Positions 3,955 to 61,166 of a stretch of 64,000 nucleotides of DNA are shown here, in pieces. Each line of letters opens with the position of its first letter. Position 1 is the stretch's first letter. The position numbers and the translations under genes were made by a program. Location: the NCBI GenBank assembly GCA_030648055.1, contig JAUSHI010000009.1, positions 47,722 to 111,721 of the forward strand, in the 5' to 3' direction. This DNA comes from a bacterium. GTDB lineage: Bacteria > Patescibacteriota > Minisyncoccia > Sungbacterales > SURF-37. The notes below the pieces were generated by a model. It searched no databases and was not told the DNA's origin. It worked only from the letters and a program-made list of their open reading frames with translations.

Positions 3955-4205
3955 CCCAAAAATTTTCAGCTCCGATTCAGACAAAATTTCCTCACGCCCA
4001 GCGCAATATAATTAAGAAAAATTTGAACTCAACCTCGCTTCGGCTTAGCCGAAACTCGGGATTCAAACAGCAAATTTTTCTTATATTGCTCGCGCGTTCG
4101 TTATTTTGTAGCTGAATCTCCGCAATGAAAATTTTTGCATCACTGCTCGCTTTAATGAATACGGACGGTGAATTTGTAGTTATATCTTCGCGATGAAAAA
4201 ATTTA
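3955..4205 (+). repeat. Family A repeat, copy 1 (about 250 bp with a GC hairpin and internal 'aatcggagc / aaaatttt' sub-repeats)
   Basis: It is about 75-80% identical to the reverse complement of 34238..34490. The central hairpin is ttcggc-tta-gccgaa here versus ccccggc-ttgta-gccgggg in copy 2, so the stem is kept by different bases. It starts 1 nt after the dcd stop. Confidence 0.7.
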
Positions 4206-4657: not shown

Positions 4658-5299
4658 ATGGAACAAAAAAAAAATTACTATATTGCCATGGCTGGGATTA
4701 TGGGGTCGGGTAAGACTACCGTGGCAAAATTACTTTCGCGTGAACTTGGATTCACGCTTTTTGAAGAGACCGTTGCCGAGAATTCCTTTTTGCCGCTTTT
4801 CTATAAAGATGCGCGGCGGTGGGCGTTTCACAACCAGCTTTTCTATCTTCATGATAATGTTCGGCAGCTCAAAACAATACAGGAGATGCTACAACGCATG
4901 AGTGTTGTCCAGGATTCGCTGATTCATGATCATTATTTTACATATACCAAGGCGCAACTTGAGCTTGGTCATATGCTTCCTGCAGAATTTGCTTTGTATG
5001 AACAATATGTAGCCGCAATTTGGCGCGATGTGCCAATTCCTGACTTAATAATTCAGCTGGATGCGTCAGTGTCCGTGCTTGCTGAACGAATTCAGAAGCG
5101 TTCGCGAGATTTTGAAAAAGAAATTGACACGCACTACCTTGAAACGCTTTCTCGCCTGCAGGGCGAATGGGTCCTTGCGCACCCTCACCTTCCCATTCTT
5201 TCCGTCGCGGTTGATCATATTAATTTAGCATCCGGTCGTGAAGACCAGCGGATGTTTATCGGGTTGGTGCGAGAGAGGCTTGGAATTAAAATGAAATAA
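4658..5299 (+). CDS. Deoxynucleoside kinase (dAK/dGK family)
   Basis: P-loop MAGIMGSGKTT with a dNK-family layout over 213 aa. Confidence 0.8.
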   Translation: MEQKKNYYIAMAGIMGSGKTTVAKLLSRELGFTLFEETVAENSFLPLFYKDARRWAFHNQLFYLHDNVRQLKTIQEMLQRMSVVQDSLIHDHYFTYTKAQLELGHMLPAEFALYEQYVAAIWRDVPIPDLIIQLDASVSVLAERIQKRSRDFEKEIDTHYLETLSRLQGEWVLAHPHLPILSVAVDHINLASGREDQRMFIGLVRERLGIKMK

Positions 5300-5341
5300 A
5301 AATTAAAAGACCAGCTCGTGCGCTGGTTTTTTTAAAAATTT

Positions 5342-6113
5342 TTAGGATACGAATGGGATCAGGTCTTCCAGAGAACGAAGTGTTTGTATGCGCGGGTGCT
5401 CCAGGGGTTGCGATTGGAAACCTTCACCACGGTCATGAGGGTTGAAGAGGGGTGAGCTTGAACCGTGCGGCACATAGATACCGCTCCATTCCTTTCCAAG
5501 AGAGAGGGCGGGTAGAATGTCGTTGTCGCCATTGCCGATGGCGAACCACCATTCAAACCGAGAGCTATCGGAAGTGTATCCGCTTACGCGACAGAAATCA
5601 TCCGCGGTTTTCTTCTGTTCTGTTGCCTGTACGCGTTCCTGCGGAAAAAATTCAAAAATGTTCATGTGTGTGGCACGGCGATGGAATAGTGCGGTGTCAT
5701 AGCACGAAAGAAGACAAAGGCGATGGCCGCCCGCTTTCAGGTGTTGGAGAACAGCACGGGCTTCCGGCAACCATTCTAGTTTTGTGTAGTCAAAAGGCAG
5801 ATCACCGATTGCGCGGACAAGCATTTCATGTTCCTGGCGATAATAGTTTTTTCCGAAGCGCCATTTTGCCCATGTGCATACTTCTCGGTAGAAGAGCGCC
5901 ATCGCTTCCGCGACTCTGCCCCGCCGTACTCCCCATTCTTTGAAGAGTTCTAGGTCGATCTCAAAATAACGATCTTTGACGTAGTGCAGGTTAGGGACGT
6001 GTCCTGGAAGCAGTTCATAGAGCACGCGGAAGAATTCTGAACGGGCGTGAGAATATTGCCACTCATTCATCCAGAGCGTGTCATCAGCATCAAAGACGAA
6101 TTACGTTCGGCAT
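5342..6113 (-). pseudogene. HAD-superfamily hydrolase with an apparent 1-nt frameshift immediately after the start codon
   Basis: SD gaggagg plus the ATG at 6113 encode MPNV. One extra nt (~6101) then shifts the frame before the in-frame HAD motif I FVFDADDTLW, which precedes the first ATG (6070) of the long ORF. HAD motif IV (FAIGNGDNDIL) is present. Confidence 0.6.
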
Positions 6114-6232: not shown

Positions 6233-7498
6233 ATGCGCGACAAAGAAATTTTTTCACTCCTTCAGGAAGAAGCAAAGCGTCAGCAGGAGACGCTTGATTT
6301 GATACCGTCGGAAAATATTGCCTCCGCGGCGGTGCGCGAAGCGCTTGGCTCGGAATTTGTTAATAAGTATTCGGAAGGATATCCGGGAAAACGTTATTAC
6401 GGCGGGAATAAAATCGTTGACGAGGTTGAATTGCTCGCCCAAGAACGCGCGCGCAAAGTTTTTCATCTCGGTAAAAATTGGCACGTAAACGTTCAGCCGT
6501 ATTCGGGTTCTCCGGCAAATATGGCGGTCTATTACGCCCTTTTGGGTCCGTGTGAGTCTGCGCCAAGTCAGCGTAAGTCCGCGGATATTCTGGGCATGTC
6601 GCTTCCGTTCGGCGGGCATTTGACGCACGGATGGAAAGTTAATTTTTCGGGGAGATTTTATAAGTCGGCGCAGTACACGGTCGGTCGTGATGGGTTGATT
6701 GATTACAACGAAGTCGCGCGTCTCGCACGGAAAGAACGGCCAAAAATAATTGTAGCGGGCGCGACCGCGTATCCGCGGATTATTGATTTCAAAAAGTTTG
6801 CGGCCATCAGCCGCGAAGTCGGAGCGTATTTTATGGCGGATATCGCGCACATTGCCGGGCTTATTGCCGCCGGCGCTCATCCAACGCCTTTTCCTTTCGC
6901 GGATGTCGTGACAACGACCACGCATAAAACCCTTCGCGGCCCCAGAGGGGCTATGATATTCGCAAACAAAAATTCGCAGGTTGCAAAAAAGAATTTGGTT
7001 GATATTGCCTCAGCCATAGACCGAGCGGTATTTCCAGCCTTACAGGGCGGGCCTCATGACAACCAAACCGCAGCTATTGCCGTTGCGCTCGGCGAGGCCA
7101 TGGAGCCGTCGTTCAAAAAATACGGCCATCAGATCGTGAAAAACGCGAAAGTGCTTGCGCGCGAATTGCAAAAACTCGGATTCCGGCTGGTATCTGGCGG
7201 TACGGATAATCATTTGATGCTCGTGGACCTTACCAACCTCGGCATTTCCGGCAGAGAGGCCCAAGACCGGCTGGAGGAGGCGGGCATTATCGTCAACCGG
7301 AATACTATCCCGTACGATACGCGCTCGCCCTTTGATCCTTCAGGCATTCGTGTCGGCACACCATCAGTTACTACGCGAGGGATGAAAGAAAAAGAAATTA
7401 AAATAATTGCCGGATTTATTTATGAAGCTTTGACGAATGGCGGTGGGCGTGCTATGAATTTTAAAGTTAAAGCTCTTTGCAGAAAATTTCCTGTATAA
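6233..7498 (+). CDS. glyA: Serine hydroxymethyltransferase
   Basis: SHMT motifs (DLIPSENIASAAV, GYPGKRYYGG, HLTHG, PLP Lys in TTTHKTLRGPRG). The internal ATG at 6233 matches the canonical N-terminus. Confidence 0.92.
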   Translation: MRDKEIFSLLQEEAKRQQETLDLIPSENIASAAVREALGSEFVNKYSEGYPGKRYYGGNKIVDEVELLAQERARKVFHLGKNWHVNVQPYSGSPANMAVYYALLGPCESAPSQRKSADILGMSLPFGGHLTHGWKVNFSGRFYKSAQYTVGRDGLIDYNEVARLARKERPKIIVAGATAYPRIIDFKKFAAISREVGAYFMADIAHIAGLIAAGAHPTPFPFADVVTTTTHKTLRGPRGAMIFANKNSQVAKKNLVDIASAIDRAVFPALQGGPHDNQTAAIAVALGEAMEPSFKKYGHQIVKNAKVLARELQKLGFRLVSGGTDNHLMLVDLTNLGISGREAQDRLEEAGIIVNRNTIPYDTRSPFDPSGIRVGTPSVTTRGMKEKEIKIIAGFIYEALTNGGGRAMNFKVKALCRKFPV

Positions 7499-22720: not shown

Positions 22721-23567
22721 AATCTTCTTTTAATCCTGAAAATAAAGGTTGAAATTTTAATCCCAGCGCTTTAATTTTGCTGTTGTCGCATATCATATTT
22801 TCATTGGCAAAAGGGAACTCTTCTTTGTCAAAATTTTTTCCGGCGGCAGGCGGATTGAACCGCAAAACTGGATCCTTACCGGAGATTTTTCCCATCATCT
22901 TCACCAAATCAATAAGTGTTATTGTTTCGTCTCCGGCGCAGTTAAATGCGCCGACAGCGCGTTTTTCCGCAATCGCCGCGATTGCTTCGGCTACTTCTTC
23001 GGCAAACACAAATTGAATTTTGGCTTGACCATCGCCTGGTAAAATAAGCGGCCGGTTATTTTGAATTCGTGTATAGATAAAGCGTTCGCGGTTCTGATAA
23101 TTTTTTGGTCCTAAAATATAGACCGGACGAAACGAGGCATATTTTATTCCGCTTTCTTCAAGAACTTTTTCGCACCCAGCCTTGCCCCTGCCGTAGTTGC
23201 CCCAAATCGGCCAATCGCCTACGGGAGAAAGTTCGGTTAATGGAAACAAATGGGGTTTTTTATAAACCGCGGCGGTGCTAAAATGTAAAAAGAAGTCAAA
23301 ACGCAATTCCCGTATAGCGTTTTCGGTTTGCGCTTCGCTGTAAGCGCACATATCTATCACTGTATCAAAGCGCTCTTTCAGATTGTATCCTCTGTTTCTG
23401 TCACCTGTTACAAAACGCGCTTTCGCCGGATATTCTAACTGTATCAATCCGCGATTAAATATAGTTAAATTATGTCCGCGGTTTAACAGAAGTTCTACGA
23501 GATAGGGCCCCACAAAACGCGAGCCGCCGATTATTAAAATATTTTGCTTGTCAGGAGAGGTCATCAT
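22692..23567 (-). CDS. NAD-dependent epimerase/dehydratase (extended SDR)
   Basis: ILIIGGSRFVGPYLVELLLNRGH Rossmann motif. Confidence 0.8.
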   Translation of the reverse strand: MMTSPDKQNILIIGGSRFVGPYLVELLLNRGHNLTIFNRGLIQLEYPAKARFVTGDRNRGYNLKERFDTVIDMCAYSEAQTENAIRELRFDFFLHFSTAAVYKKPHLFPLTELSPVGDWPIWGNYGRGKAGCEKVLEESGIKYASFRPVYILGPKNYQNRERFIYTRIQNNRPLILPGDGQAKIQFVFAEEVAEAIAAIAEKRAVGAFNCAGDETITLIDLVKMMGKISGKDPVLRFNPPAAGKNFDKEEFPFANENMICDNSKIKALGLKFQPLFSGLKEDYESYYQHVV

Positions 23568-23573
23568 ATCATT

Positions 23574-23664
23574 GTGTATAACACATTTGCCAAGACGCTG
23601 AAAATAGTTGTATTATTATAGTGTATAACACATTTGCCAAGACGCTGAAAATAGTTGTATTATT
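23574..23664. repeat. Perfect tandem direct repeat, 2 x 44 bp separated by 3 bp, each unit promoter-like (TTGCCA-18-TATTAT)
   Basis: gtgtataacacatttgccaagacgctgaaaatagttgtattatt occurs at 23574..23617 and again at 23621..23664, in the divergent intergenic region between the epimerase and ORF 23695. Confidence 0.85.
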
Positions 23665-27890: not shown

Positions 27891-28469
27891 ATGGGACGAG
27901 GTAAAGATATAAAACCCAGATTGGGCCCAGTGATGCAGAAAATATTGCTACTCTTGGCCGGAGGTTCTGCGCTCGGGCTTTCTCGGAGGCCCGATACTTA
28001 TTTTCGAATTCTCAGAGGCATCACAAAGGAATGGCGGGCAATAGAACGGCGGCGCCTTCACGAGGCAATAAGAAATCTTTATAGTTCACAGTTGGTTGAC
28101 TGCCGAGAGCATCCCGATGGCACGGCCTCTTTGGTGTTGACCAATAGTGGTAAGGAGCGAGTGCTACATTATGATCCCGAGGCGATAAAAATAAAGCGCC
28201 CTAAACGGTGGGATGGTTTGTGGCGGGTTGTTATGTTTGATATTCCCGAGCTCCAGAAACGAGCGCGCGACGCGCTTTCATTTAAATTAAGACAGATCGG
28301 TTTTTATCCAATGCAAAAGAGCGTGTTTGTACATCCGTACGATTGTAAAGATGAAATAGATTTTCTTATTGAATTCCATCAGGTTAGACCGCACGTGAGA
28401 TTTTTATTGGTAAAAGAAACTGACATCGATTTGAAACTAAAACAGCATTTTCACATTAATATGTTATGA
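27891..28469 (+). CDS. PaaX-like putative transcriptional regulator (N-terminal wHTH-like plus PaaX C-terminal domain)
   Basis: MQKILLLLAG...LVLTNSGKERVL resembles the PaaX N-domain. The C-terminal VVMFDIPE...QKSVFVHP segment is PaaX-C-like. Confidence 0.4.
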   Translation: MGRGKDIKPRLGPVMQKILLLLAGGSALGLSRRPDTYFRILRGITKEWRAIERRRLHEAIRNLYSSQLVDCREHPDGTASLVLTNSGKERVLHYDPEAIKIKRPKRWDGLWRVVMFDIPELQKRARDALSFKLRQIGFYPMQKSVFVHPYDCKDEIDFLIEFHQVRPHVRFLLVKETDIDLKLKQHFHINML

Positions 28470-28681: not shown

Positions 28682-29443
28682 ATGGCTACCGTAATTTCTG
28701 TTCTCAATCAAAAAGGAGGAACCGGCAAGACAACAACTAGCGTTAATCTGTCTGCTTATTTGGTCGCCTTGGGAAAGAAAGTTCTCTTGGTTGATATTGA
28801 TCCGCAGGCTAATGCCACATCCGGGCTTGGTGTGGACCGCAAGACCCTCAAGGAAAATCTTTATCACGCGCTTGTGCTGGATGTTTCTCCGGGCGGCGTT
28901 ATAAGAAAAACACGGCTTTTAAATCTTGATATTTTACCGGGCTCGCCGGATCTTGCCGGAGCCTCGGTGGAGCTTGTTGGTATGAAAAGGCGCGAGTTTA
29001 GGCTGAGAGACCTTCTCAAAAAAGTTTCCGGAGGGTACGATTATATAATAATTGATCCTCCGCCCTCGCTCGGGCTTTTGACGCTGAATTCCATTACCGC
29101 CTCCGACAAAGTGATTATTCCCGTGCAGTGCGAGTATTACGCCATGGAGGGGTTGGCCGAGCTTTTAAGGACAATTCAGCTTGTAAAGAAAAACTTAAAA
29201 TCAAAAATTGAAGTCGGCGGGGTGGTGCTTACCATGTTTGATAAAACTTCTCGTCTTCACAGGGCGGTTGCCAAAGAAATACGGAAAAAATTTCCCGGAC
29301 ATGTGTTTGAAACGGTAGTCCCGAGAAATATCAGCCTCGCGGAGGCCCCCAGTTTCGGCAAGGCGATTCTGCAATACGACCCTTATAGCCACGGAGCAAA
29401 GGCCTATAGACAATTGGCCCAGGAACTAATACAGATGAAGTAA
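28682..29443 (+). CDS. parA: Chromosome partitioning ATPase ParA/Soj
   Basis: Deviant Walker A NQKGGTGKTTTSVNL. Confidence 0.9.
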   Translation: MATVISVLNQKGGTGKTTTSVNLSAYLVALGKKVLLVDIDPQANATSGLGVDRKTLKENLYHALVLDVSPGGVIRKTRLLNLDILPGSPDLAGASVELVGMKRREFRLRDLLKKVSGGYDYIIIDPPPSLGLLTLNSITASDKVIIPVQCEYYAMEGLAELLRTIQLVKKNLKSKIEVGGVVLTMFDKTSRLHRAVAKEIRKKFPGHVFETVVPRNISLAEAPSFGKAILQYDPYSHGAKAYRQLAQELIQMK

Positions 29444-29582
29444 GATAAAGAAATTTATGAATCCCGTTAGAAGCCGCGGTCGCGGTGCGGGAAATATATA
29501 GTACTAATAATATGAGAAAGGAGATTATAAATTATCAGTATAATAATCAGCAGGCACCGACCGCGACCCGCTTTTAAACGGA

Positions 29583-30680
29583 ATGAACCCATTAGGTAAA
29601 GGACTTGAATCACTAATACCAGACAAAGACCCCTTGGAGTTAAGCGATAAGGAGCCGCTGGATATTTTAGATGCGCAAGCAAATATTCCAGAGCCAGTTT
29701 ATCGTCTCGCTTCTTTGGGAGGCGCGACTGTGCCAAGAGCTGATTTTGGAACCAGTGCTCATAATGAAATTAAGGCCGAGGTCGCCAAAACGATGCTCGC
29801 ACTCGCCCCTAGCCAAGAAAATTTTCACGAGGAAGTGCCTCGCTACGCGCGCTCTAGGGGAGAGAGTGTTTTTTGGATTGACATAGGTAAGATTGAGCCG
29901 AACCCTTATCAGCCCAGAAAGGAGTTTGATGAGGAGGCGTTAAAAAGTTTGTCGGATTCAATACGGACGCACGGAGTGCTTCAGCCTATCGTAGTTTATA
30001 AAGTTGAGGTGGAAACTCCCCGGGGCCTTGATGTCCGCTATCAGCTAATAGCGGGTGAGAGAAGGTGGAGAGCGTCAAAAATGGCTGGGCTTCGTGAGGT
30101 TCCGGCAATGGTTAAGCGGGGGCAGGCCGAAGAGCGTCAAAAATTAGAGTGGGCTATTATTGAAAATGTTCAGCGCGAGGATTTAAGTCCGGTTGAGCGC
30201 GCGCGTGCTTTCAAACAGCTTATTGGTGAGTTCAACCTTTCCCAACGAGATGTCGCCGGCCGAATCGGGAAAAGCCGCGAATATGTGGCCAATGCCATCC
30301 GGCTTTTGTCGCTTCCCGTACATATTCAGACGGCGATTGAAAGCGGGACTATAAGCGAAGGTCATGCCCGAGCTATTTTGACTATGCAGGGTTTGCCGGA
30401 AAGCCAGAATAAACTTTTTGAAGAAATTAAGGCCAACAGTTTGACGGTGCGCGACGCAGAGCTCGCCACCCGCGCGATGCTTGGCGCGCGGAGGCCCACT
30501 AAACGGAGGAACGCTTCTTTTCTTGACCCGGAAGTGCGCTCGGTTCAGTCGCGGCTTGAGGAGACGCTAGGCACAAAAGTGCTTTTGCAAAAGGACGGCG
30601 AACGCGGGAAAATCATCGTGGAGTTTTATTCCGATGAAGAACTGCGGAGTATAATTAGCAAGATGATGAGCGGAGAATAA
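29583..30680 (+). CDS. parB: Chromosome partitioning protein ParB/Spo0J (with a lineage-specific insert of about 90 aa after the N-terminal motif)
   Basis: N-terminal GKGLESLIP, ParB box IEPNPYQPRKEF...GVLQPIVV, and the HTH region. Confidence 0.85.
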   Translation: MNPLGKGLESLIPDKDPLELSDKEPLDILDAQANIPEPVYRLASLGGATVPRADFGTSAHNEIKAEVAKTMLALAPSQENFHEEVPRYARSRGESVFWIDIGKIEPNPYQPRKEFDEEALKSLSDSIRTHGVLQPIVVYKVEVETPRGLDVRYQLIAGERRWRASKMAGLREVPAMVKRGQAEERQKLEWAIIENVQREDLSPVERARAFKQLIGEFNLSQRDVAGRIGKSREYVANAIRLLSLPVHIQTAIESGTISEGHARAILTMQGLPESQNKLFEEIKANSLTVRDAELATRAMLGARRPTKRRNASFLDPEVRSVQSRLEETLGTKVLLQKDGERGKIIVEFYSDEELRSIISKMMSGE

Positions 30681-34237: not shown

Positions 34238-34490
34238 ATTAGCAAAATTTTTTATTGCGCAGATTTAGGAACAAAATGACGAGCATATTAGCAACATAAG
34301 GAAAATCTGCTGTGTGAATCCCCCGGCTTGTAGCCGGGGATGAGTTCAGATTTTCCTTAATAATGTTGCGAAATATGAGAGGAGATTTTGTCTCAATCGG
34401 AGCTGAATAAATTTTTGTTGATGCCGAGCGTTGTTTTGTGAAGTGCGCGAAGTAGAATTTGTTCAAATCGGAGCGGGGAAAATTTTGAAA
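34238..34490 (-). repeat. Family A repeat, copy 2 (inverted relative to copy 1)
   Basis: The reverse complement aligns with 3955..4205. Its central hairpin is ccccggc-ttgta-gccgggg. It lies immediately 3' of the topA stop (34500). Confidence 0.7.
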
Positions 34491-46589: not shown

Positions 46590-48071
46590 ATGATCGCTTT
46601 GGCGCGGAAAACATGGCATCGTTTTTTTGGTGACTTCAGGGCCAGATACATTCCGCTTCTTATGGTGTATTTTGCTTACGGAGCAGCCGGCTTCTCGGCT
46701 ATTGCCGAGAGCTTTTGGGTCAAGGAACAGCTTTCTCTTTCAGCTCGAGACCTTGCCGTTATCGGTTTTTGGGTTGGCATTCCCTGGACCGTCAAGATGG
46801 TTTTTGGACAGTTTGCCGATAGCATTTCTATTTTCGGGTCGCGCCGAAAAATTTATATTTTTGCGGGCGCGGGCCTTATTGCGCTTGGTCAGGCGATTCT
46901 AATCGGGCTTGCGGCGGGATGGCCGCTAGTGAAACAGTTTGGAATGCCGGAGAATCTATTTTTTCTTGCCGCGGTTGTTTCCGTGGTCGGCTTCGTCTTG
47001 CAGGACGTCATTGCCGATACGATGAGTACCGAAGTTGTTGACCGGGTGAATCTCGATGGCACTCCTCGGCCACAAGAAGAAGTTGATTCCGATCTCGCTC
47101 AGGTTCAATGGCTCGGCCGGATCGCACTCATAGTGGCCGGTGTTTTGGTCTCCGGTATCGGCGGCTGGCTGGCCCAAGTGACGAGCTATACCACGATGTT
47201 CACACTTGCTCTCTTTGTTCCGGTGATTTCTATGACTGGAGCCGTGTTTATCCGCGTGAATCAAGCGCCACAGAGCCCGGTTAACTGGTGGGTTCTCGGT
47301 GGCGGGCTTCTCTTTGGTGTCTTTGTAGTCGGCATTAAGTTTTCCGGCCTTCCGCTTGCCGAAGAGATCGTCTTTGCCGCATCTCTGGGGACTCTCATTT
47401 TTTTGATCTCCAGGATTGGCATTTCTCGGGCCTTGGCTTTTGCGGCAATCACTTTATTTCTTTTCCGCGCGACTCCGGGCGCGGGGCCGGGTGTTGGTTG
47501 GTGGACGATTGATGTTTTGGGATTTGATAAGGCCTTTCAGGGGACGCTCCAGCAGATCGGGTCAATCCTTACTCTTGCCGGCCTCTTTTTGTTCCGAAAG
47601 TATATTATTGAGAAGCCCATTGGGTTTACTCTTGCTTGGCTTACGGTGGCGGGCGCGATAGTTTCGCTTCCGACCATTGGTCTTTTTTACAGCATTCACG
47701 AGATGATCGGCGTCTCGGCGCGCACCATAGCGCTCGTTGATACTACGATTGCCTCACCTCTTGGCCAGCTTTCCATGGTGCCGCTTCTTACCCTTACTGC
47801 GAGGACTTGCCCTAAGGGTAATGCGGGTACATGGTTTGCTTTGATGGCATCACTAATGAATTTAGCATTATCCGCAAGTCAGCTCGGGACAAAGTATTTA
47901 AACACCGCTTGGGTAGTGACGCGCGAAGTGCGTAATGCTTCGGGCTCGGTGGTTACCGCGGCTGATTATTCAAATGTCGGCGTGCTCCTCATCACCACGT
48001 GGGTGATCGGGCTTGTCGTGCCGCTTTTCACTATTTGGTTCTTTCTCCGGAGAAGTAGTTCTTCCGGCTAA
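46590..48071 (+). CDS. BT1-family folate-biopterin transporter (MFS)
   Basis: Twelve predicted TM segments. IPWTVKMVFGQFADSISIFGSRRK matches the BT1 signature. Confidence 0.6.
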   Translation: MIALARKTWHRFFGDFRARYIPLLMVYFAYGAAGFSAIAESFWVKEQLSLSARDLAVIGFWVGIPWTVKMVFGQFADSISIFGSRRKIYIFAGAGLIALGQAILIGLAAGWPLVKQFGMPENLFFLAAVVSVVGFVLQDVIADTMSTEVVDRVNLDGTPRPQEEVDSDLAQVQWLGRIALIVAGVLVSGIGGWLAQVTSYTTMFTLALFVPVISMTGAVFIRVNQAPQSPVNWWVLGGGLLFGVFVVGIKFSGLPLAEEIVFAASLGTLIFLISRIGISRALAFAAITLFLFRATPGAGPGVGWWTIDVLGFDKAFQGTLQQIGSILTLAGLFLFRKYIIEKPIGFTLAWLTVAGAIVSLPTIGLFYSIHEMIGVSARTIALVDTTIASPLGQLSMVPLLTLTARTCPKGNAGTWFALMASLMNLALSASQLGTKYLNTAWVVTREVRNASGSVVTAADYSNVGVLLITTWVIGLVVPLFTIWFFLRRSSSSG

Positions 48072-48098
48072 CAGACGGGAAATCCCGTCTGTTTTTTC
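48071..48098 (+). terminator. Rho-independent terminator
   Basis: acagacggg-aaat-cccgtctgt followed by tttttc. Confidence 0.7.
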
Positions 48099-48124
48099 AT
48101 TGTTTGCCTTCGACGTGTCGTCGG

Positions 48125-48265
48125 AGTTGCAAACAATAGAACCCAGCCCTCTAAGCCATTGAATTACTTTGCTTCTTTGACTAAAAGCCCTTCACTTATA
48201 TTTATAAATGACACTTATTCGAACAGCATAGAGGGCTGGGTGAAGGTTTTGTAACCAAAATTTGG
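48125..48265. mobile_element. Family B MITE-like element, copy I (diverged outer TIRs; core TIR CCCAGCCCTCTA...TAGAGGGCTGGG)
   Basis: Core 48142..48240. The flanking sequence resembles the family consensus TIR extension. Confidence 0.65.
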
Positions 48266-48380
48266 AACAAATTTTGGACAAAGCCCTTCATTTGACTCAA
48301 TTATTTTTATGTAGTACAGCTAAATATATAGCAGGTTCGTTTAAAACCTCTACGGAGGAAATAAGAAAAGGAGAAAGCTC

Positions 48381-49607
48381 ATGAAACTTCATTGGGTTTT
48401 CGTTATCGTTTTTGCGTTTCTTGTCGTTTCTCTTGGTACGGTTATGGCGCCGGTTACGGTCCATTCGGCGGAGCCTACTGGCGAAGAGGTAAACACTATC
48501 AAGGCAGAGATGATGACGTTCGCTGAAATTCTTTACTACTACGCCACAGAAGCGCTTGAAAAGCCCGCGGACCTCAAGGCCTGTGCCTATGAGATGCTTC
48601 GCATGAAGCCCGCGGAGCAGAAGAGTTGCCGTGACAAGTATTCGGTTTGGTATCCGAAGGAAGAGGTTGAAATGGTTGAGGCAGACATGGAGGGAAAGTT
48701 TGGCGGCATCGGCGCGGAGCTTACTGACAAGGACGGAAAAGTTGTGGTCGTGGCTCCCATTGACGGCACGCCGGCATTTCGCGCAGGTTTGAAGCCCGGG
48801 GACGAAATTCTTGAAGTTGATGGCGTTAAGGTTGAGAGTGTGTCTGGTGCGGTAAAGCGCGTTCGCGGGAAGATCGGAACATCAGTTGAGATAAAAGTTA
48901 GGCGCGATGGGAAGAACGACACGATCGTTTTCACAATCGTTCGTGCCGAGATCGTCATTCAGGCGGTTGAGATGAAAGTGCTTCACGGCGCGAATGGAGA
49001 GGCGGGGTATCTTCGCGTGAAGACCTTCAGCGAAGTGATGCCCGATGAGTTTCACAAAGAGATGACGAAACTTCGTGATTCCGGTATTACCAAGGTTGTT
49101 CTTGATTTTCGTGGTAATCCCGGTGGGTTTCTTAATGTAGCATTAGATATTCTTTACGATTTTGCGCGTGAAAGCGATACTTTGATGGTCATGCGCGAGC
49201 GCGATGAGGAAACGGTGTTTGATGCTCTGTCTGTGGGGCGCGCGGTTTTGAAAACCGAGCGCAAACGCACACATGGAATGTTTCTCGGTATGGCGGTTGT
49301 GATTCTCGTGAACAAAGGGAGCGCTTCTGCCTCGGAGGTCTTCGCCGGGACCATGAAGGATTGGGGGTATCCGGTGATTGGCACGAATACTTTCGGCAAG
49401 GGGATTGGACAAACGCATCTTCCGCTTTCCGATGGTTCGGTTTTGAGTCTGACCACTTTTGAGTTCCTGGTCGGCAACTCCAGGACTAAGATTCACGGCA
49501 TCGGTGTTATTCCGACTCATAGTGTTGTCGGGCCGAGGCCAGCCACTTCCGAAATTCTTCGTGAAGACAAACAGCTTGAAAAAGCGCTTGAATTGCTTTT
49601 CAAGTAA
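48381..49607 (+). CDS. ctpA: S41-family C-terminal processing peptidase with PDZ domain
   Basis: Signal peptide, PDZ (GIGAELTDKDGKVVVVAPIDGTPAFRAGLKPGDEIL), S41 motifs VLDFRGNPGGFL and GSASASE. Confidence 0.8.
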   Translation: MKLHWVFVIVFAFLVVSLGTVMAPVTVHSAEPTGEEVNTIKAEMMTFAEILYYYATEALEKPADLKACAYEMLRMKPAEQKSCRDKYSVWYPKEEVEMVEADMEGKFGGIGAELTDKDGKVVVVAPIDGTPAFRAGLKPGDEILEVDGVKVESVSGAVKRVRGKIGTSVEIKVRRDGKNDTIVFTIVRAEIVIQAVEMKVLHGANGEAGYLRVKTFSEVMPDEFHKEMTKLRDSGITKVVLDFRGNPGGFLNVALDILYDFARESDTLMVMRERDEETVFDALSVGRAVLKTERKRTHGMFLGMAVVILVNKGSASASEVFAGTMKDWGYPVIGTNTFGKGIGQTHLPLSDGSVLSLTTFEFLVGNSRTKIHGIGVIPTHSVVGPRPATSEILREDKQLEKALELLFK

Positions 49608-49616
49608 TAAATGATT

Positions 49617-49643
49617 CAAAAAGGCGCCAGCGCGCCTTTTTTC
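49617..49643 (+). terminator. Rho-independent terminator
   Basis: aaaaaggcgc-cagc-gcgcc followed by ttttttc. Confidence 0.65.
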
Positions 49644-49693
49644 TTTGCCAATGTTGTCTAAATTTATAAGCTGAGTTCAATGCGAGGCGCAAT

Positions 49694-49836
49694 AAATTTA
49701 GTTACAACATTGAGCACCCAGCCCTCTATGCTGTTCGAATAAGTGCAATTCATAAATATAAGTGAAGAGTTTTTAATCAAAGAAGCAAAGTAATTCAATG
49801 GCTTAGAGGGCTGGGTGAAGGTTTTGTTGCCAAAAT
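49694..49836. mobile_element. Family B MITE-like element, copy II (inverted relative to copy I; long TIRs)
   Basis: aaatttagttacaacattgagcaCCCAGCCCTCTA ... TAGAGGGCTGGGtgaaggttttgttgccaaaatt. The internal segment is the reverse complement of copy I's internal segment. Confidence 0.7.
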
Positions 49837-49845
49837 TATGCGCGC

Positions 49846-51852
49846 TTACGCGCTTTTATTTTGGACAAAGCCCCTCATTTCCTCCAAAGTTTCGTTCAGC
49901 ATTTGGCAGTATAAATTGAAGCCGACTTTGTTGATCGCACCCGATTGTTCGCGGCCGAGAATATTCCCAGCACCCCGGATTTCAAGATCTCTTAACGCGA
50001 TTTCATATCCCGAGCCGAGTTCCGAAAATTCCTGAAGAGCGGTGAGCCGGGCAAGGGCTTTTTCGGTGAGGCTAGCCCGGGCGCCGGTCGCCCTAGGGTT
50101 TTGCGATCGATAAAGGAAATAAGAATAAGCTTGCCTGTCGCCCCGGCCGATCCTGCCTCGCAATTGGTGCGCCTGGGCAAGACCAAGTTTTGTCGCGTCT
50201 TCAACGATGAGTGTGTTTACGTTTGAAAAATCAAGCCCGTTTTCAATGATGGTCGTGGCCAGGAGCATGTCAAATTTTTTATTGCGGAATTCATTCATTA
50301 CCGAGAGCATTTCTTGTTCCGGCATTCTTCCGTGTATTATGCGGATTTTTACTTGCGGAAGAAGTTTGGCAAGTTTTTCTTTGAAAAGGCCCATGGTCTC
50401 TACGCGGTTATGCAGAAAATAGATCTGTCCGCCTCTTGCCAGCTCCTCATTAACGGCTCCGCGGATAATTTTTTGTGAATAGGGCAGTACTATGGTTTTT
50501 ATGGCGATTCTCCCGGGTGGCGGCGTTTCTATTACAGATATGTCCCGGAGGCGCGTTAAGGCCAAAGAAAGAGTCCGCGGTATCGGGGTTGCCGAAAGCG
50601 AGATAATATCAACTTCTCCGCGCATTTCTTTGAAGCGTTCTTTTTGTTTGACTCCGAATTTTTGTTCTTCATCAATTATGGCGAGTCCCAGATTGGCGAA
50701 ATTTATATCTTTTGAAATTAGGCGGTGGGTTCCGATGACTATGTCAATTTTTCCCGAAGAAATTTTGGAAAGAATTTCCTTTTCTTCTTTTTTGGGAGTA
50801 AGCCGTGAAAGGAGGGCTATTGTCACTCCGGTCTCGCTGAAGCGCTCGGTAAAATTCCTAAGATGCTGATCGGCGAGAATAGTGGTCGGGCTTATGAGGG
50901 CGACTTGTTTTCCTGTGGCAACCGCGCGAAAAGCCGCGCGCATGGCAATCTCCGTTTTCCCGAAGCCGACGTCTCCGCAGATAATTCTATCCATCGGTCT
51001 TTTTTTAAGCATGTCGTCTTTAACGTCGTCAGTTGCTTTACGCTGGTCCGCTGTTTCATTAAACGCGAAATTTTCTTCAAATTCCTTTTGAAAGCCCTCG
51101 TTGTCCTGATACGGAGGGCGCGTGGAGAGAGCTCGTTTTTTATAAAGCTCCAGGAGTTCACGCGCCAAAATTTCAGTTGATTCTTTTACTTTTCTTCTTG
51201 TTGTAAACCAAACTGTTCCACCGAGGCGGTGTACGCTCGGCGTTTCAAAGCCGATGTATGGCGAGAGTTTTTTGGCCTGCTCTCTCGGGACAAGCAGGCG
51301 GTCGGGTTCGGTCCTGTTTTTGGGCGGGGCGTATTCCAGCAAAAAATATTCTTTGCCGTTTTCTTTTATTTTTCCGCGGTATATTCCGATACCATGGTCA
51401 AGATGAACCATAAAACTGTTTGGCAGAGTTTTTTCAAGCGACATTCTGAATGAAATCTTCGGCCCCGTTGTTGCCGATTCGCGCTCAAAAATTTTTATGG
51501 TTTCAATAGTGTTTCCGAAAAATTCAATTCTGAAGGGTGATGGTGAGTTTATCGGCCATACTTCAAGGATATTCCCCTGCCAGAGGAATTCTCCCCGGCC
51601 GAAAATTTTTCCGGTTTTTTCATAACCAAAATCAACAAGGTGTCTTAAAACTTGCGACGGCTTGATTGTTTGGCCTTTTTCAAGGAATAACGCCGAATCT
51701 TTCCACGTGTCGGAGGTTTCTTTGGCCTTTTTGATTTGTGATAAGTTTTCCGAAAACCATGAAAACCCCCGTTCTAAAAATTGGGGGGTGATGCGAACTA
51801 TTAAAATTTCTTTTAATTCATTCGGCACGCGGAGCATTTTACGCTCATTCAT
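49846..51852 (-). CDS. mfd: Transcription-repair coupling factor Mfd, minimal form (RNAP-interaction region plus translocase; lacks UvrB-homology N-module and C-terminal D7)
   Basis: Walker A GDVGFGKTEIAMRAAF, helicase motifs, and the TRG motif LRDLEIRGAGNILGREQSG. It is only 668 aa, against about 1150 aa for canonical Mfd. Confidence 0.75.
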   Translation of the reverse strand: MNERKMLRVPNELKEILIVRITPQFLERGFSWFSENLSQIKKAKETSDTWKDSALFLEKGQTIKPSQVLRHLVDFGYEKTGKIFGRGEFLWQGNILEVWPINSPSPFRIEFFGNTIETIKIFERESATTGPKISFRMSLEKTLPNSFMVHLDHGIGIYRGKIKENGKEYFLLEYAPPKNRTEPDRLLVPREQAKKLSPYIGFETPSVHRLGGTVWFTTRRKVKESTEILARELLELYKKRALSTRPPYQDNEGFQKEFEENFAFNETADQRKATDDVKDDMLKKRPMDRIICGDVGFGKTEIAMRAAFRAVATGKQVALISPTTILADQHLRNFTERFSETGVTIALLSRLTPKKEEKEILSKISSGKIDIVIGTHRLISKDINFANLGLAIIDEEQKFGVKQKERFKEMRGEVDIISLSATPIPRTLSLALTRLRDISVIETPPPGRIAIKTIVLPYSQKIIRGAVNEELARGGQIYFLHNRVETMGLFKEKLAKLLPQVKIRIIHGRMPEQEMLSVMNEFRNKKFDMLLATTIIENGLDFSNVNTLIVEDATKLGLAQAHQLRGRIGRGDRQAYSYFLYRSQNPRATGARASLTEKALARLTALQEFSELGSGYEIALRDLEIRGAGNILGREQSGAINKVGFNLYCQMLNETLEEMRGFVQNKSA

Positions 51853-51969: not shown

Positions 51970-52537
51970 TTATTGTGCGTTATATGCGTTCATTATAATT
52001 TCCGGCCGGTTTTCTCTAAGTGTTTCAAGCGCGTTGGCGGTTTGTTTAATTATTTTTGCAATCGCGCGTTTTTCGTTGGGTGTGAATTTTTGCAATACTA
52101 ATTTTTCCGCTGGAACTCTCTTTTTTTTCTGGACACCTATTCTAAACCGCCAATAGGCTTCGGTTTTTAACGCGCGTTTCACTGATTCAACGCCTTTATG
52201 GCCTCCTGAACTTTTATTGAAAGAAAGTTTTGCTCTCCCAAGTTCAATATCGGAATCGTCGTGCACGATAATAACGGCGGAGGGTTTAGTTTTATAAAAA
52301 CGCGCGGCTGGTCCTACTGCGTTTCCGGATTTATTCATAAATGTTTCGGGTAGCACTAAAACCAATTTTTCCTTTCCAAGTTTTGTCTCGGCGACCAGTG
52401 CGTTCCATTTTTTGTTGAATGAAAAATCATTCGCGTTTATTTTTTTGTGGAATGCCAAAAGAACCATGCGCCCGACGTTGTGGCGCGTTTCCTCATATTC
52501 TTTTCCGGGGTTTCCCAGGCCAACTATTAAATACATG
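51970..52537 (-). CDS. pth: Peptidyl-tRNA hydrolase
   Basis: MYLIVGLGNPGKEYEETRHNVG is the canonical Pth N-terminus. The ORF-track extension to 52671 runs into the repeat element and is probably not translated. Confidence 0.85.
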
Positions 52538-52559
52538 CCAATTTTATTTGAGCGGAGCG

Positions 52560-52705
52560 AAATTATAAAATTGAGCACCCCGCCCTCTAAGTTGTAAGCG
52601 TTTTTTGTGTCCGACAAATGAAATGAGCCGGCTCTTAAAAATAATAATACTCCTATTATGTCATACGGCATAGGGGGCGGGGTTCTGGTTTTTGTTTCAA
52701 CAGTT
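52560..52705. mobile_element. Family B MITE-like element, copy III (variant core TIR CCCCGCCCTCTA...TAGGGGGCGGGG)
   Basis: ttgagcaCCCCGCCCTCTAag ... caTAGGGGGCGGGGttctggtttttg. The tail tttcgctccgctcaaataaaattggcATG ends at the pth start codon. Confidence 0.65.
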
Positions 52706-52764
52706 CTTCGCCATTTATGGCTTAAACTTTTGACAAAAACCGAAAAGTGCGCTAAAATGCGATA

Positions 52765-53316: not shown

Positions 53317-53545
53317 CATAGAAGGAAAAATAATTTGGACATGCCATCCCCCGCCAATTTTGGGGGGCATGCCGGGGCGAAGCGCTTCGCCCAAAAGGGT
53401 TGTCCTATTCGGACACGCGCTTCGCAAAAGTTACTCATGACATTTTTCTTCCAAATATTTGTCCAGTTGTAACGGCAAAATTGGAGGAGGATGCTCATGA
53501 TTGTAACTAAATTTTATTCGCTTGTGCTCTAAAATTTAGACAATC

Positions 53546-54967
53546 ATGGCAAAACAAAAAATAAAAGAATTTCGCTCTCCGCGCGGAACACACGATATTC
53601 TTCCCGAAGAACAGAGGTTGTGGGATAAAATCCGGCAGGAAGCGCGGGAAATTTCTCTTTTTTACGGTTTCGACAGGATTGACCCGCCGCATTTTGAGCA
53701 TACCGAACTTTTTGAATTAGGCATCGGGAGCGATACCGAAATAGTTACAAAACAAATGTATTCATTTAGAACAAGGGGTGGCGATTCTTTAACTTTGAGG
53801 CCTGAAGGTACGCCTTCAATTATGCGGGCTTTTTTTGAGCATGGCATGCTGAATCTACCCCAGCCCGTAAAGCTTTATTATTTTGGTTCGTTTTTTCGCC
53901 ACGAATCTCCTCAGCGCGGAAGGTCCCGTGAATTTAACCAATGGGGTCTTGAGCTTATCGGAGAGCAAGGCCCGGTGGCGGACGCGCAGATAATTCAGGC
54001 ACTTTTTGTTTTCTTGAAAGAGCTTGGCCTTAAAAACGCGATTATAGAAATAAATTCCATTGGCTGTGAGGTTTGCAGGCCGCGATATCGCTCGGAACTT
54101 GCCGCGTATTATCGCTCAAGAGCTAAAGGGCTTTGCAAAGATTGTAAAGAAAGATTCCGCCAGAATCCACTGCGCCTTTTGGACTGCAAAGAGGAAAAAT
54201 GCATGATTGTCCGCCAGGGAGCTCCGCAGATTTTGGACCACTTGTGCGAAAACTGTAAAACCCATTTTAAACTGCTTTTGGAATTTCTAGATGAGTCCTC
54301 GCTCCCCTATCTTTTAAATCCATATCTTGTCAGGGGGCTGGATTATTATACTCGGACTGTCTTTGAGGTTTTTGTTGGCGAAGAGGAAGAAAAAAAAGAG
54401 AAGAAGCCCGGGGTGGTGGAGGAGGCCGTTGAAGTTTCGGAAAATAAAGAAGAACCTCCGGATTTAGGTTTGGAGCAAAAAGAAAAAGAGGTAATACCCG
54501 TAAAAGAAGAAGTATCGGAAATGCCAAAGCGTCTTGCGCTTGGGGGTGGAGGTAGGTACGATAATTTGGCGGAGATTATCGGCGGTAAAATTGTTCCGGC
54601 GGTCGGCGCGGCTATGGGCATTGAACGGGTAATTCTTGCTTTAAAGATGCAAGGACATAAAATGCCCGAACCCAACAAGCCAAAAGTATTTTTTGTACAG
54701 CTTGGAGAGCTTGCTCGGAGGAAAAGTTTGCCCCTGATTGAAGAGCTAAGAAAAGCAAGGATTTCAATGGCTGAATCATTGGGTAAGGACAGTATTAAAA
54801 CGCAATTAAAAATTGCTGATAAGGTCGGGGCTGAATACGCGCTTATTTTCGGGCAGAAAGAGGCTCTGGACGGGACTATGATATTGCGCGAGATGTCATC
54901 GGGTATTCAGGAGGCCCTACCGCAGGATAAGCTTATAGAAGCGCTTAAAAAGAGATTGAGGAAGTAA
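53546..54967 (+). CDS. hisS: Histidyl-tRNA synthetase (with a Zn-ribbon insertion and an acidic KE-rich insertion)
   Basis: Class II motifs (RGTHDILPEE, LRPEGT, FRHESPQRGRSREFNQWGLE, GGGRYDNL) and an anticodon-binding C-terminus. Confidence 0.9.
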   Translation: MAKQKIKEFRSPRGTHDILPEEQRLWDKIRQEAREISLFYGFDRIDPPHFEHTELFELGIGSDTEIVTKQMYSFRTRGGDSLTLRPEGTPSIMRAFFEHGMLNLPQPVKLYYFGSFFRHESPQRGRSREFNQWGLELIGEQGPVADAQIIQALFVFLKELGLKNAIIEINSIGCEVCRPRYRSELAAYYRSRAKGLCKDCKERFRQNPLRLLDCKEEKCMIVRQGAPQILDHLCENCKTHFKLLLEFLDESSLPYLLNPYLVRGLDYYTRTVFEVFVGEEEEKKEKKPGVVEEAVEVSENKEEPPDLGLEQKEKEVIPVKEEVSEMPKRLALGGGGRYDNLAEIIGGKIVPAVGAAMGIERVILALKMQGHKMPEPNKPKVFFVQLGELARRKSLPLIEELRKARISMAESLGKDSIKTQLKIADKVGAEYALIFGQKEALDGTMILREMSSGIQEALPQDKLIEALKKRLRK

Positions 54968-55003
54968 AGGGCTTTTTCTAAAATTTGTCATTCATAGCCA
55001 CAA

Positions 55004-55173
55004 ATTTTAGCTAAAAAACCTTTACCCAGCCCCTTATGCAGTTCAAAATTAATAACAGTAAATAATGCGGTAGGTTAACATAAGAGAAAACTTAGCCCAG
55101 GCGGCTTAAGGGGCTGGGTGCTCATGTTTGTAGCTAAATTTATTTCGCTATGAGCTCATAAATTTCGACAAAC
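55004..55173 (+). mobile_element. Family B MITE-like element, copy IV (core TIR CCCAGCCCCTTA...TAAGGGGCTGGG) with a tail ending at the ATG of the HIT gene
   Basis: aaattttagctaaaaaacctttaCCCAGCCCCTTA ... TAAGGGGCTGGGtgctcatgtttgtagctaaattt + tatttcgctatgagctcataaatttcgacaaacATG. Confidence 0.7.
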
Positions 55174-60687: not shown

Positions 60688-60984
60688 AGCTTCTCCTTAT
60701 TAAAGAGCAATTCCCCTTCATTATGTGTTGCAATTTTTATGCTTTTTGTCAAGCAATCTTATAACTTATCCACAAGAAATTTGATTGCGTTTTTTTTGGT
60801 GATAAGATTAAGACAACGGAAGCGTTTGAGGGAAAAAAGTTTTTAACAATCTGATATTCAATCAAAATGTTCAGGGAATTTTTACAAAAGGCCTTAAGCA
60901 TTTGCCGCATCAAGAAAATGGCGGGGTATCGCCATGTACCGAGGTGCGGATTTTTATTCGTTTGTTCGCGAGGCGTAGCCGAGC

Positions 60985-61166
60985 GATTACAAACGAATAA
61001 CCCAGCCCTCTATGCTGATTGATTGCGTAAATGCAATAATTTATGAAGAAAAAACTTGTAAAGAGTAATAAACGAAATTCGGGCGGCTTAGAGGGCTGGG
61101 TGCTCAATGTTGTAGCTAAATTCTTTCGCTCGCATTGGGCTCGCTCATAATTTAGACATCATTGGC
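60985..61166 (+). mobile_element. Family B MITE-like element, copy V, with a tail ending at the ATG of the RNR gene
   Basis: CCCAGCCCTCTAtgctg ... cttAGAGGGCTGGGtgctcaatgttgtagctaaatt + ctttcgctcgcattgggctcgctcataatttagacatcattggcATG. Confidence 0.7.

Follow-up and report, generated by a model that had tools for sequence, protein, structure and literature searches.

In a 64,000-nt stretch of contig JAUSHI010000009.1 (GenBank assembly GCA_030648055.1) from a Patescibacteriota bacterium of the order Sungbacterales, hereafter the window, we found that a ctpA-like gene encoding an S41 peptidase lies between two copies (I and II) of a modular palindromic repeat; all coordinates below are positions within this window. 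Copies I and II are probably two independent insertions of a Paceibacteria repeat that resembles REPINs and Correia elements and has an orientation-neutral core, and ctpA is a resident syntenic gene that merely lies between them, its bracketing being coincidental. The ctpA locus is therefore that of an ordinary resident gene, aside from a small rewrite of the C-terminus of the neighboring Mfd protein. What stands out in these tiny, streamlined genomes is the repeat itself, a near-invariant 16-mer hairpin with REPIN-like co-variation that is present in at least 60 species-level genomes. Its bias to gene starts and operon interiors and its tolerance within an RNase P RNA gene are also striking.

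Structure of the Two Copies

The 101-bp cores of copies I and II (Table 1) are similar only as reverse complements of each other. A repeat search of the window returned them as inverted arms (48141–48242 and 49715–49816; 102 nt, 94% complementary), and the alignment of core I with the reverse-complemented core II gave 96 identities over 102 positions, with longest exact runs of 40 and 31 nt. By contrast, the outer flanks are direct repeats, both on the left (48125–48156 vs. 49700–49731, 75%) and on the right (48226–48262 vs. 49801–49837, 92%), and the distal arms match directly as well, with ATTTTGGACAAAGCCC(T/C)TCATTT at 48271–48293 and 49858–49880 (96%). Therefore, only the segment bounded by the inverted repeats (IRs) is flipped, and the A/T variant at IR position 14 inverts along with the interior. 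This bears out the earlier note on this DNA, in which the copies around ctpA were described as opposite in internal orientation only. The 13-mer ACCCAGCCCTCTA, allowing up to two mismatches, has 12 matches in the window compared to 0.82 expected, which excludes chance as the source of the IR repeats.

In each core, 69 nt of AT-rich sequence separate ACCCAGCCCTCTAWGC from GCWTAGAGGGCTGGGT; with two further hairpins at its sides, a full unit reads hairpin X, core, hairpin Y and spans about 190–235 bp. X and Y share one general form, an imperfect hairpin (TTGTARCYAAAWT..AWTTTRGACAA) whose 2-nt bulge is conserved; they stand in mutually inverted orientation and meet the core at ..TGAGC (X) and GAAGG or AAAGG (Y). 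In minimum free energy (MFE) folds, both unit I (48098–48292) and unit II (49643–49880) form three consecutive hairpins, with z-scores of −8.25 and −9.12, respectively, relative to dinucleotide shuffles. The inner X arm of copy I is 75% identical, in direct orientation, to X of copy II, and the latter shares 92% identity over 87 nt with locus L025 in another genome. The segment tgaaggttttgt..ccaaaa...ttttggacaaagccc, which the earlier note had seen following both copies, is real and corresponds to hairpin Y, with the second hairpin, X, on the other side of the core; its proposal that the shared unit exceeds the core bounded by terminal inverted repeats (TIRs) was thus correct. It had also placed the two copies jointly between two strong terminators, but each copy instead directly follows a terminator of its own: copy I starts directly past the T-run of the BT1 gene terminator (48070–48099) and copy II directly past the ctpA terminator (49623–49642). 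The insertion site of both, behind the terminator T-run, reads TTTTTT^CATTT. Overall, the window contains five full copies, compared to the two described earlier.

ctpA as a Resident Gene

A metagenome scan with CtpA yielded orthologues at 54–63% identity (loci L114–L123), none of which has a core at its locus. In these relatives, the genes follow one another as ctpA-(mfd)-lepB-hisS-HIT, with ctpA and lepB-hisS-HIT co-linear on the same strand; the orthologous sites upstream of ctpA and in the ctpA-mfd, lepB-hisS, and hisS-HIT spacers are empty. In L117 and L118, the terminator T-run is directly followed by the ctpA promoter (ATTTGACG..GGAGAAAGCAATG), whereas in the window an X-core-Y unit (48100–48289) is interposed before a homologous promoter and Shine-Dalgarno (SD) sequence. 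Similarly, ctpA and mfd in L123 converge 24 nt apart across a single terminator, whereas in the window X-core-Y (49643–49877) lies between the ctpA terminator and the end of mfd. The lepB-hisS spacer is 27–40 nt in the relatives and 230 nt in the window, and the hisS-HIT spacer, 63 nt with its own promoter in the relatives, is 207 nt in the window. The empty sites and the retained synteny indicate that the units are lineage-specific additions around a resident ctpA.

The insertion of copy II has left a mark on the adjacent gene. The mfd open reading frame (ORF), on the minus strand, ends at 49846 in hairpin Y of copy II, with a 32-nt read-in (49846–49877), and the distal arm and loop of Y encode its last 10 codons and the stop. 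When the frame is read against L123, the Mfd tail is ..EEMRGFVQNKSA in the window and ..EEMKKSA in L123. The C-terminus of an essential repair protein has thus been rewritten by copy II, because mfd now ends inside the hairpin. The small GC hairpin in the Y loop of copy II was considered as the ancestral terminator and rejected, since the hairpin at 49623–49642 fits that of L123 equally well in sequence and better in position; we therefore kept a simple insertion.

The earlier note had further suggested that ctpA may be the cargo of a composite element, or that the 48.3–49.6 kb segment may be inverted or deleted by homologous recombination between the copies. We consider this highly improbable, and the composite cargo reading is largely refuted. 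The inverted 102-nt cores (94%), which lie on either side of 1.47 kb and include exact runs of 40 and 31 nt, and the presence of RecA in the clade would favor it, and a RecA-type inversion between these runs may be physically possible. However, ctpA keeps its synteny and strand in repeat-less relatives, has retained its native promoter, SD, and terminator, and is accompanied by no transposase in the window, while the other three units of the window bracket nothing in particular. The synteny comparison around ctpA that had been proposed as a check showed a conserved order and strand for ctpA..lepB-hisS-HIT and no sign of ctpA mobility. An inversion of the segment finds no support either: the relatives are co-linear and share the strand, and X-core-X and Y-core-Y would be the outcome if the cores recombined, whereas both ctpA-flanking units show the canonical X-core-Y flanks. 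Opposite core orientation is, besides, a trait of the family as a whole. In SRR13727527, the only sample holding this organism, independent Logan contigs are either identical to the window or break in the repeats, giving a single state; one of them ends in both cores because of shared 31-mers, an example of how these repeats break short-read assemblies.

The Repeat Family in Other Genomes

In an expanded search, a species-representative genome collection was scanned with both IRs separated by a 55–85-nt gap. We found the two-IR pattern at no fewer than 112 loci in 60 assemblies, nearly all labelled Patescibacteria or Parcubacteria, including Taga-, Nealson-, Staskawicz-, Portnoy-, Jorgensen-, Harrison-, Brenner-, Wolfe-, Yanofsky-, and Liptonbacteria. 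No matches to the core pattern were found among 2.9 million viral contigs (IMG/VR), and a phage vector for the repeat was rejected on these grounds. The IR is GC-rich and 16 bp long, with the consensus ACCC[A/C]GCCCTCTAWGC. Across 120 cores, the spacer is constrained in length (64–76 nt, mode 69) and not conserved in sequence, and the two arms co-vary, with 117 concordant and 3 discordant cores at position 5 and a ratio of 116:4 at position 10; position 14 is mismatched in 117 of the 120. Short forms of the core with 12–32-nt spacers are also present, and lone half-sites proved to be degenerate partners of such short cores. As in transposable elements of the miniature inverted-repeat type (MITEs), the repeats are short (under ~500 bp), non-coding, and multi-copy with TIRs: the 101-bp cores with 16-bp IRs number five in the window, and other genomes supplied more than 120. 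No parent autonomous element with the same TIRs, that is, no IR pair enclosing an ORF, was present in the window and the at least 112 loci (~1 Mb).

Several candidate identities for the repeat were rejected. Among the Rfam 15 covariance models, only tRNA-Leu was found in the window, with nothing significant over 47900–50000 at E-values up to 10, and the repeat therefore matches no known RNA family. Additional conserved RNA structure in the interior was discarded because the mean z-score is only −0.6, and a tRNA-derived origin because just one of the 120 interiors is a tRNA, a special case, and there are no conserved G/C positions. Our searches of the literature by sequence string and keyword found no description of palindromic repeat families in Patescibacteria. 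The family may serve as a handle on the organization of transcription, translation, and RNA processing in the candidate phyla radiation (CPR), and as a marker of CPR genome evolution.

The special case occurs in L058 (CAYHAF010000001.1, 1040–1480), where the interior of a core is a complete tRNA-Thr(CGT). Around this core lie 5′ and 3′ pieces that resemble tRNA, together with another IR pair of different sequence (ACCCCCACACCTTAATTTC), and a further short core lies nearby, giving a Russian-doll nesting of hairpin elements and tRNA pieces. The same genome has an RNase P RNA gene at 6259–6678 (RF00010, 89 bits, E = 1.5e-27, below the gathering score of 100) with a short core inside it (6323–6388), immediately past the P4 strand GAGGAAAGUCC; the model has 13 nt at this point and the sequence 75. 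The locations of these cores, in an RNase P RNA gene and around a tRNA-Thr, imply that the core stem must be tolerated in RNA. In addition, the coreless relatives L119, L120, and L121 have a solo Y-type hairpin (AAGGTTTTGTAACTAAAATC..GATTTTAGACAAAGCCCTT) on the minus strand, ~1100 nt from the locus end, so that the hairpins form a wider family than the cores do.

Orientation of the Core

Among 75 elements viewed with X on the left, the IR beside X is of the CTAAGC type (A state) in 52 and of the CTATGC type (T state) in 23. Within genomes, cores are 83–100% identical, whereas their X and Y flanks share only 33–67% identity, and flipped paralogue pairs are present in three genomes (the window; L001 vs. 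L025; L023 vs. L027/L056). The near-identical cores, diverged flanks, and flipped pairs indicate that the core spreads or is homogenized as a module, in either orientation. Such indifference to orientation is expected, since the two ends are the same sequence inverted, and reinsertion, template switching or recombination across the IRs, or a dedicated recombinase are possible mechanisms. Both orientations of the segment bounded by the IRs were seen solely in comparisons of paralogues and of different species. Flipping at the orthologous rpsC|rplP site was examined and set aside: the polarity of position 14 is swapped there, and the interior orientation is unreadable because of palindromic ends and a diverged middle. 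Empty X|Y junctions, considered as possible target sites of the core, were absent from the sample, which held just solo Y or solo X hairpins.

Mobility and Alternative Explanations

According to the explanation that we favor, the family, confined to the Parcubacteria/Paceibacteria, would consist of non-autonomous mobile or gene-converting elements of the REPIN or Correia (MITE) kind. A trans-acting factor that recognizes the two 16-mers would keep them identical to each other and near-invariant across species, while the spacer would drift freely. Given ends that are the same sequence inverted, the core could re-insert or invert with its junctions unchanged, and these unchanged junctions may account for the finding of both core orientations against the asymmetric X and Y. 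Copy I would have landed between the BT1 terminator and the native ctpA promoter, and copy II would have the ctpA terminator on one side and the mfd 3′ end on the other, having replaced the last mfd codons. How the repeat moves, the involvement of a trans-acting factor, and any continued flipping are matters of inference in this explanation, whereas we observe the anatomy, the family and where it occurs, the filled and empty orthologous sites, and the flipped paralogues.

In our search for an enzyme, no transposase, integrase, invertase, or Y1/HUH enzyme was found among the 58 ORFs of the window, all of which are housekeeping or unknown, and no transposase-like or recombinase cluster recurs near the at least 112 loci. 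One family-carrying genome, L095, encodes a Y1 transposase (4796–5553; PF01797, 47 bits; NF047646, 50 bits, below the cutoff of 80). This IS200/RAYT-like type, RAYT being the tyrosine transposase associated with sequences termed repetitive extragenic palindromic (REP), has 1386 homologues, mostly in Patescibacteria; its gene occupies a conserved holB-frr locus in several genomes and reaches three copies on one 271-kb contig. The Y1 genes of L095, L124, L145, L147, L150, and L151 are bordered on both sides by short perfect palindromes of their own, e.g., TTAGCGAGAACGTTTCTCGCTAA (..CGAGAAC.GTTCTCG..). A RAYT link was set aside as unsupported, as the E. coli RayT query gave one weak match (E = 0.021) and the clade-specific Y1 genes inspected are flanked by other palindromes.

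A number of observations weigh against mobile insertion as the explanation. The 16-mer does not adjoin the Y1 genes of these loci, and no mobilizing enzyme for the repeat was identified in the window, at the loci, or among the inspected Y1 genes. There is no clear target-site duplication, as the core flanks (GAGC on one side, AAAGG/TTTCG on the other) contain no repeat and whole units show at most CATT/CTTT, and a MITE would not usually keep a 16-mer so nearly invariant over genomes this divergent. The placement of the units is also strongly polar: beyond X, 53 of 61 units have an ORF start no more than 140 nt away, compared to 13 of 61 beyond Y, and units occupy orthologous positions across species (nusG|rplK, rpsC|rplP, ftsK|recA, murA|mreB, and upstream of mraZ). 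Finally, the short X leader GCTCAY..TTCGC-ATG is next to a core in 20 of its 24 occurrences, and core orientation in this short-X subgroup is 19:1 and thus not random.

These features of placement argue for a portable cis-acting gene-expression cassette, domesticated or functional from the start, which we regard as possible although unlikely. In RNA, the cassette would fold into a Y hairpin, the 16-bp stem of the core, and, directly 5′ of the start codon, an X hairpin, and might act as an intercistronic processing or stability hairpin (e.g., an RNase III-type site) or by masking and unmasking GGGGUG(C/A)U, the SD-like sequence formed by the 3′ end of the stem and X. Alternatively, it might carry promoter elements, with an AT-rich UP-like centre, a TTG near −25, and the (T/C)AGCWT of the interior/IR junction; in either form, its palindromic ends would let the core work either way round. 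Besides the bias of X to gene starts, units most often stand as Y-core-X between the end of an upstream gene and the start of the next (31 of 61), the start codon in the short-X subgroup falls 15–17 nt past the IR with a leader that is almost exclusive to cores, and units lie inside operons as well as at the orthologous sites, next to mainly highly expressed housekeeping genes. The cores in the RNase P RNA gene and around tRNA-Thr, the complete takeover of the window's hisS-HIT spacer, ancestral promoter included, by a unit, and the weak enrichment of TTG 24–27 nt from the gene-proximal IR (14 of 52 A-state units) point the same way, and Correia elements set a precedent, with promoters at element ends and RNase III cleavage (PMC2649163). 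However, the X ends of copies I and II face terminators and gene 3′ ends while ctpA retains its own promoter and SD, and the SD-like motif is at least 14 nt from the AUG. Sigma-70-type promoters number 9 in the interiors of 114 cores compared to 8.65 in shuffles, the interiors add little structure (mean z, as above), nothing in Rfam matches, and relatives express the same genes without units. Two specific functions were considered separately: a promoter within the interior is doubtful, because the sigma-70 scan showed no excess and the positional TTG and junction hints are weak, and a leader peptide in hairpin X was rejected, because the 13-codon ORF with a good SD before hisS is matched elsewhere by M-L-stop and neither frame nor peptide is conserved.

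By comparison, miniature invertons are improbable. Here, a recombinase would flip the ~70-bp promoter-bearing interior at the 16-bp IRs as an ON/OFF or direction switch, with copy I firing toward ctpA and copy II flipped. The interior and the position-14 mark inverted between near-identical paralogues with direct flanks in three genomes, the commonness of both states (52:23), and the swapped polarity of W at the orthologous rpsC|rplP in two species would all be consistent with this, as would the finding that only the CTATGC-type end has a −10-like CAGCAT, directed toward ctpA in copy I and toward the bidirectional ctpA terminator in copy II. However, no recombinase gene was found in the window or recurring near the at least 112 loci, the interiors are not enriched in promoters, and the 12–32-nt interiors of short cores are too small for a promoter or for recombinase looping. 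The associated genes are essential housekeeping genes and unlikely to be phase-variable, and the available assemblies show a single state; known invertons are also far larger than a 101-bp segment. A broader proposal, which we consider doubtful, is that the units are more than selfish repeats and form a clade-wide portable gene-start module of Paceibacteria. In it, a 16-bp stem of invariant sequence with its conserved mismatch, set between X and Y hairpins, would stand just 5′ of housekeeping genes and within ribosomal-protein operons and serve as either an RNA processing or translation-coupling device or a compact bidirectional promoter, with a flippable ~100-bp mini-inverton core that is spread by an as yet undiscovered enzyme. 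If true, this module would represent a new class of mobile cis-regulatory element in CPR, including insertion into an RNase P RNA and capture of a tRNA gene.

Comparison with Known Repeat Systems

A REPIN has two invariant 16-mers, one inverted relative to the other, and between them a spacer that keeps its length but is less conserved, with compensatory changes (PMC3116915). The repeat described here has the same inverted conserved pair around a spacer of variable sequence, folds into a hairpin, and shows compensatory changes that keep the arms complementary; the start-to-start distance of the 16-mers is 71 bp in GI REPINs and 85 bp here. Both are extragenic, have many copies per genome, and persist over long times in a clade, singlet hairpins also occur, and palindrome-flanked Y1 transposase genes are present in the same clade. 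The differences are that the 16-mers here are not part of a REP palindrome, that extra X and Y hairpins flank the core, and that the inspected RAYT-like genes carry other palindromes rather than the 16-mer. In addition, the 16-mer is kept across far more divergent genomes, and the repeat has a strong polarity to gene starts and a conserved single mismatch.

Correia repeat enclosed elements (CREE) of Neisseria occur in several length classes and are located 5′ of genes (PMC2649163). Like the Paceibacteria repeat, they are non-coding elements of ~100–155 bp with TIRs, TIR variants, several length classes, and a directional core, lie mostly 5′ of genes, are polymorphic for presence and absence, and can be co-transcribed as hairpins. 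By contrast, CREE duplicate their target and have a conserved core with an integration host factor (IHF) site, whereas the repeat described here shows neither a conserved interior nor a clear duplication. CREE are also limited to one genus, and the promoter and RNase III roles that are conjectured here have been demonstrated for CREE.

The bacterial interspersed mosaic elements (BIMEs) of E. coli are mosaics of imperfect REP palindromes that alternate in orientation and have other motifs in between, in intercistronic and 3′-of-gene locations, and their modules recombine into different combinations. The repeat here is likewise a palindrome mosaic in such locations with recombining modules, although the sequences differ, and to our knowledge no central 16-bp IR hairpin module has been described in BIMEs. 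Invertons such as fimS and those of Bacteroides resemble it in that an IR-bounded segment occurs in both orientations relative to fixed flanks. However, they span a few hundred bp and have a demonstrable promoter and often an adjacent recombinase, none of which was found for this repeat. Intervening sequences (IVSs) of 23S rRNA are excised by RNase III and are not known outside rRNA helices. They are AT-rich inserts of ~100 nt, closed by a long conserved stem and tolerated within an essential structural RNA, and the repeat resembles them in having a short core inside the L058 RNase P RNA gene; the repeat family is mostly intergenic.

Other Units and Features of the Window

Three further cores are present in the window, each within a unit that ends at or abuts a gene start, and a solo X hairpin precedes hisS (Table 1). 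The outer X arm ends exactly at the start codon of pth, HIT, and the ribonucleotide reductase gene, and at that of hisS in the case of the solo X. No ORF was found within the units. All five units and the solo hairpin lie within 48–61 kb, with none in the first 48 kb of the window.

Table 1. Coordinates of the repeat units and adjacent features in the window.
Feature	Position	Strand	Description
BT1-family transporter gene	46590–48071		Upstream of copy I; Pfam BT1
BT1-family transporter gene terminator	48070–48099	+	Stem 48070–48093 and T-run (terminator scan)
Copy I hairpin X	48100–48140	+	Diverged variant CATTGTTTGC..GCAAACAATAGA with inner CGACG/CGTCG stem (MFE structure)
Copy I core	48141–48241	+	IR-L ACCCAGCCCTCTAAGC (48141–48156); 69-nt interior (48157–48225); IR-R GCATAGAGGGCTGGGT (48226–48241)
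Copy I hairpin Y	48242–48289	+	GAAGGTTTTGTAACCAAAATT..AATTTTGGACAAAGCCCTTC (direct repeats, MFE fold)
ctpA native promoter-like region	48292–48380	+	TTGACT (48292–48297), 17-nt spacer, TACAGC (48315–48320); outside the repeat
ctpA SD	48370–48373	+	GGAG (sequence)
ctpA-like S41 peptidase gene with PDZ domain	48381–49607	+	Pfam Peptidase_S41 (3.3e-36), PDZ_2
ctpA/ancestral bidirectional terminator	49623–49642		GGCGCCAGCGCGCC and T-run; orthologous to AAAGAGCGCTCAAGCGCTCTTTTT of L123
Copy II hairpin X	49643–49715	+	CAATGTTGTCTAAATTTAT..ATAAATTTAGTTACAACATTG, then AGC
Copy II core	49716–49816	+	IR-L ACCCAGCCCTCTATGC; 69-nt interior, reverse-complemented relative to copy I; IR-R GCTTAGAGGGCTGGGT
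Copy II hairpin Y	49817–49877	+	Loop with small GC hairpin (49840–49853); overlaps mfd 3′ end
Third unit	52537–52739	+	X, core (52577–52683), Y, then lepB leaderless-type promoter; X abuts likely pth start codon (52537–52535, minus strand)
Solo hairpin X, coreless	53489–53549	+	Ends at hisS start codon (53546)
Fourth unit	54968–55173	−	Y, core (55024–55119), X; occupies entire hisS-HIT spacer; X ends at HIT start codon (55174)
Fifth unit	60975–61166	−	Y-like hairpin, core (61000–61101), X; X ends at ribonucleotide reductase start codon (61167)

In front of the solo X at hisS lie a strong SD (GGAGGAGGA) and a small ORF of 13 codons (MLMIVTKFYSLVL*), which stops 14 nt ahead of the hisS ATG, and the hisS start codon lies within the 3′ arm of the hairpin. 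The 3′ arm of X also resembles the sequence upstream of ftsZ (TATAATTTTTGTAAAC-ATG). Outside the window, clusters of the DnaA-box-like TTATCCACA are located just upstream, on the Y side, of the unit that precedes mraZ in L073 (~1450–1540), L057 (~270–310), and L086.

The genes at 38–48 kb all have AAGGAGG-type SD sequences, and lepB, ftsZ, a relA/spoT-like gene, topA, and many others instead have a −10-like box 5–10 nt before the ATG, a sequence pattern that suggests frequent leaderless mRNAs. A different repeat, which may be the other family of the earlier note, is a 90-nt inverted match of 76% and occurs in two distant intergenic regions, downstream of a dCTP deaminase-like gene and beside topA (3948–4037 and 34335–34424). 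The divergent intergenic region that separates an epimerase-like gene from an unknown 484-aa ORF contains a 47-nt tandem duplication in perfect register, 96% identical (23567–23660). In addition, a protein with a PaaX_M/Cas2-like domain adjoins tRNA-Leu and is followed by parA-parB (27891–28469 and 28682–30680), a context that suggests that the window is near the replication origin region.

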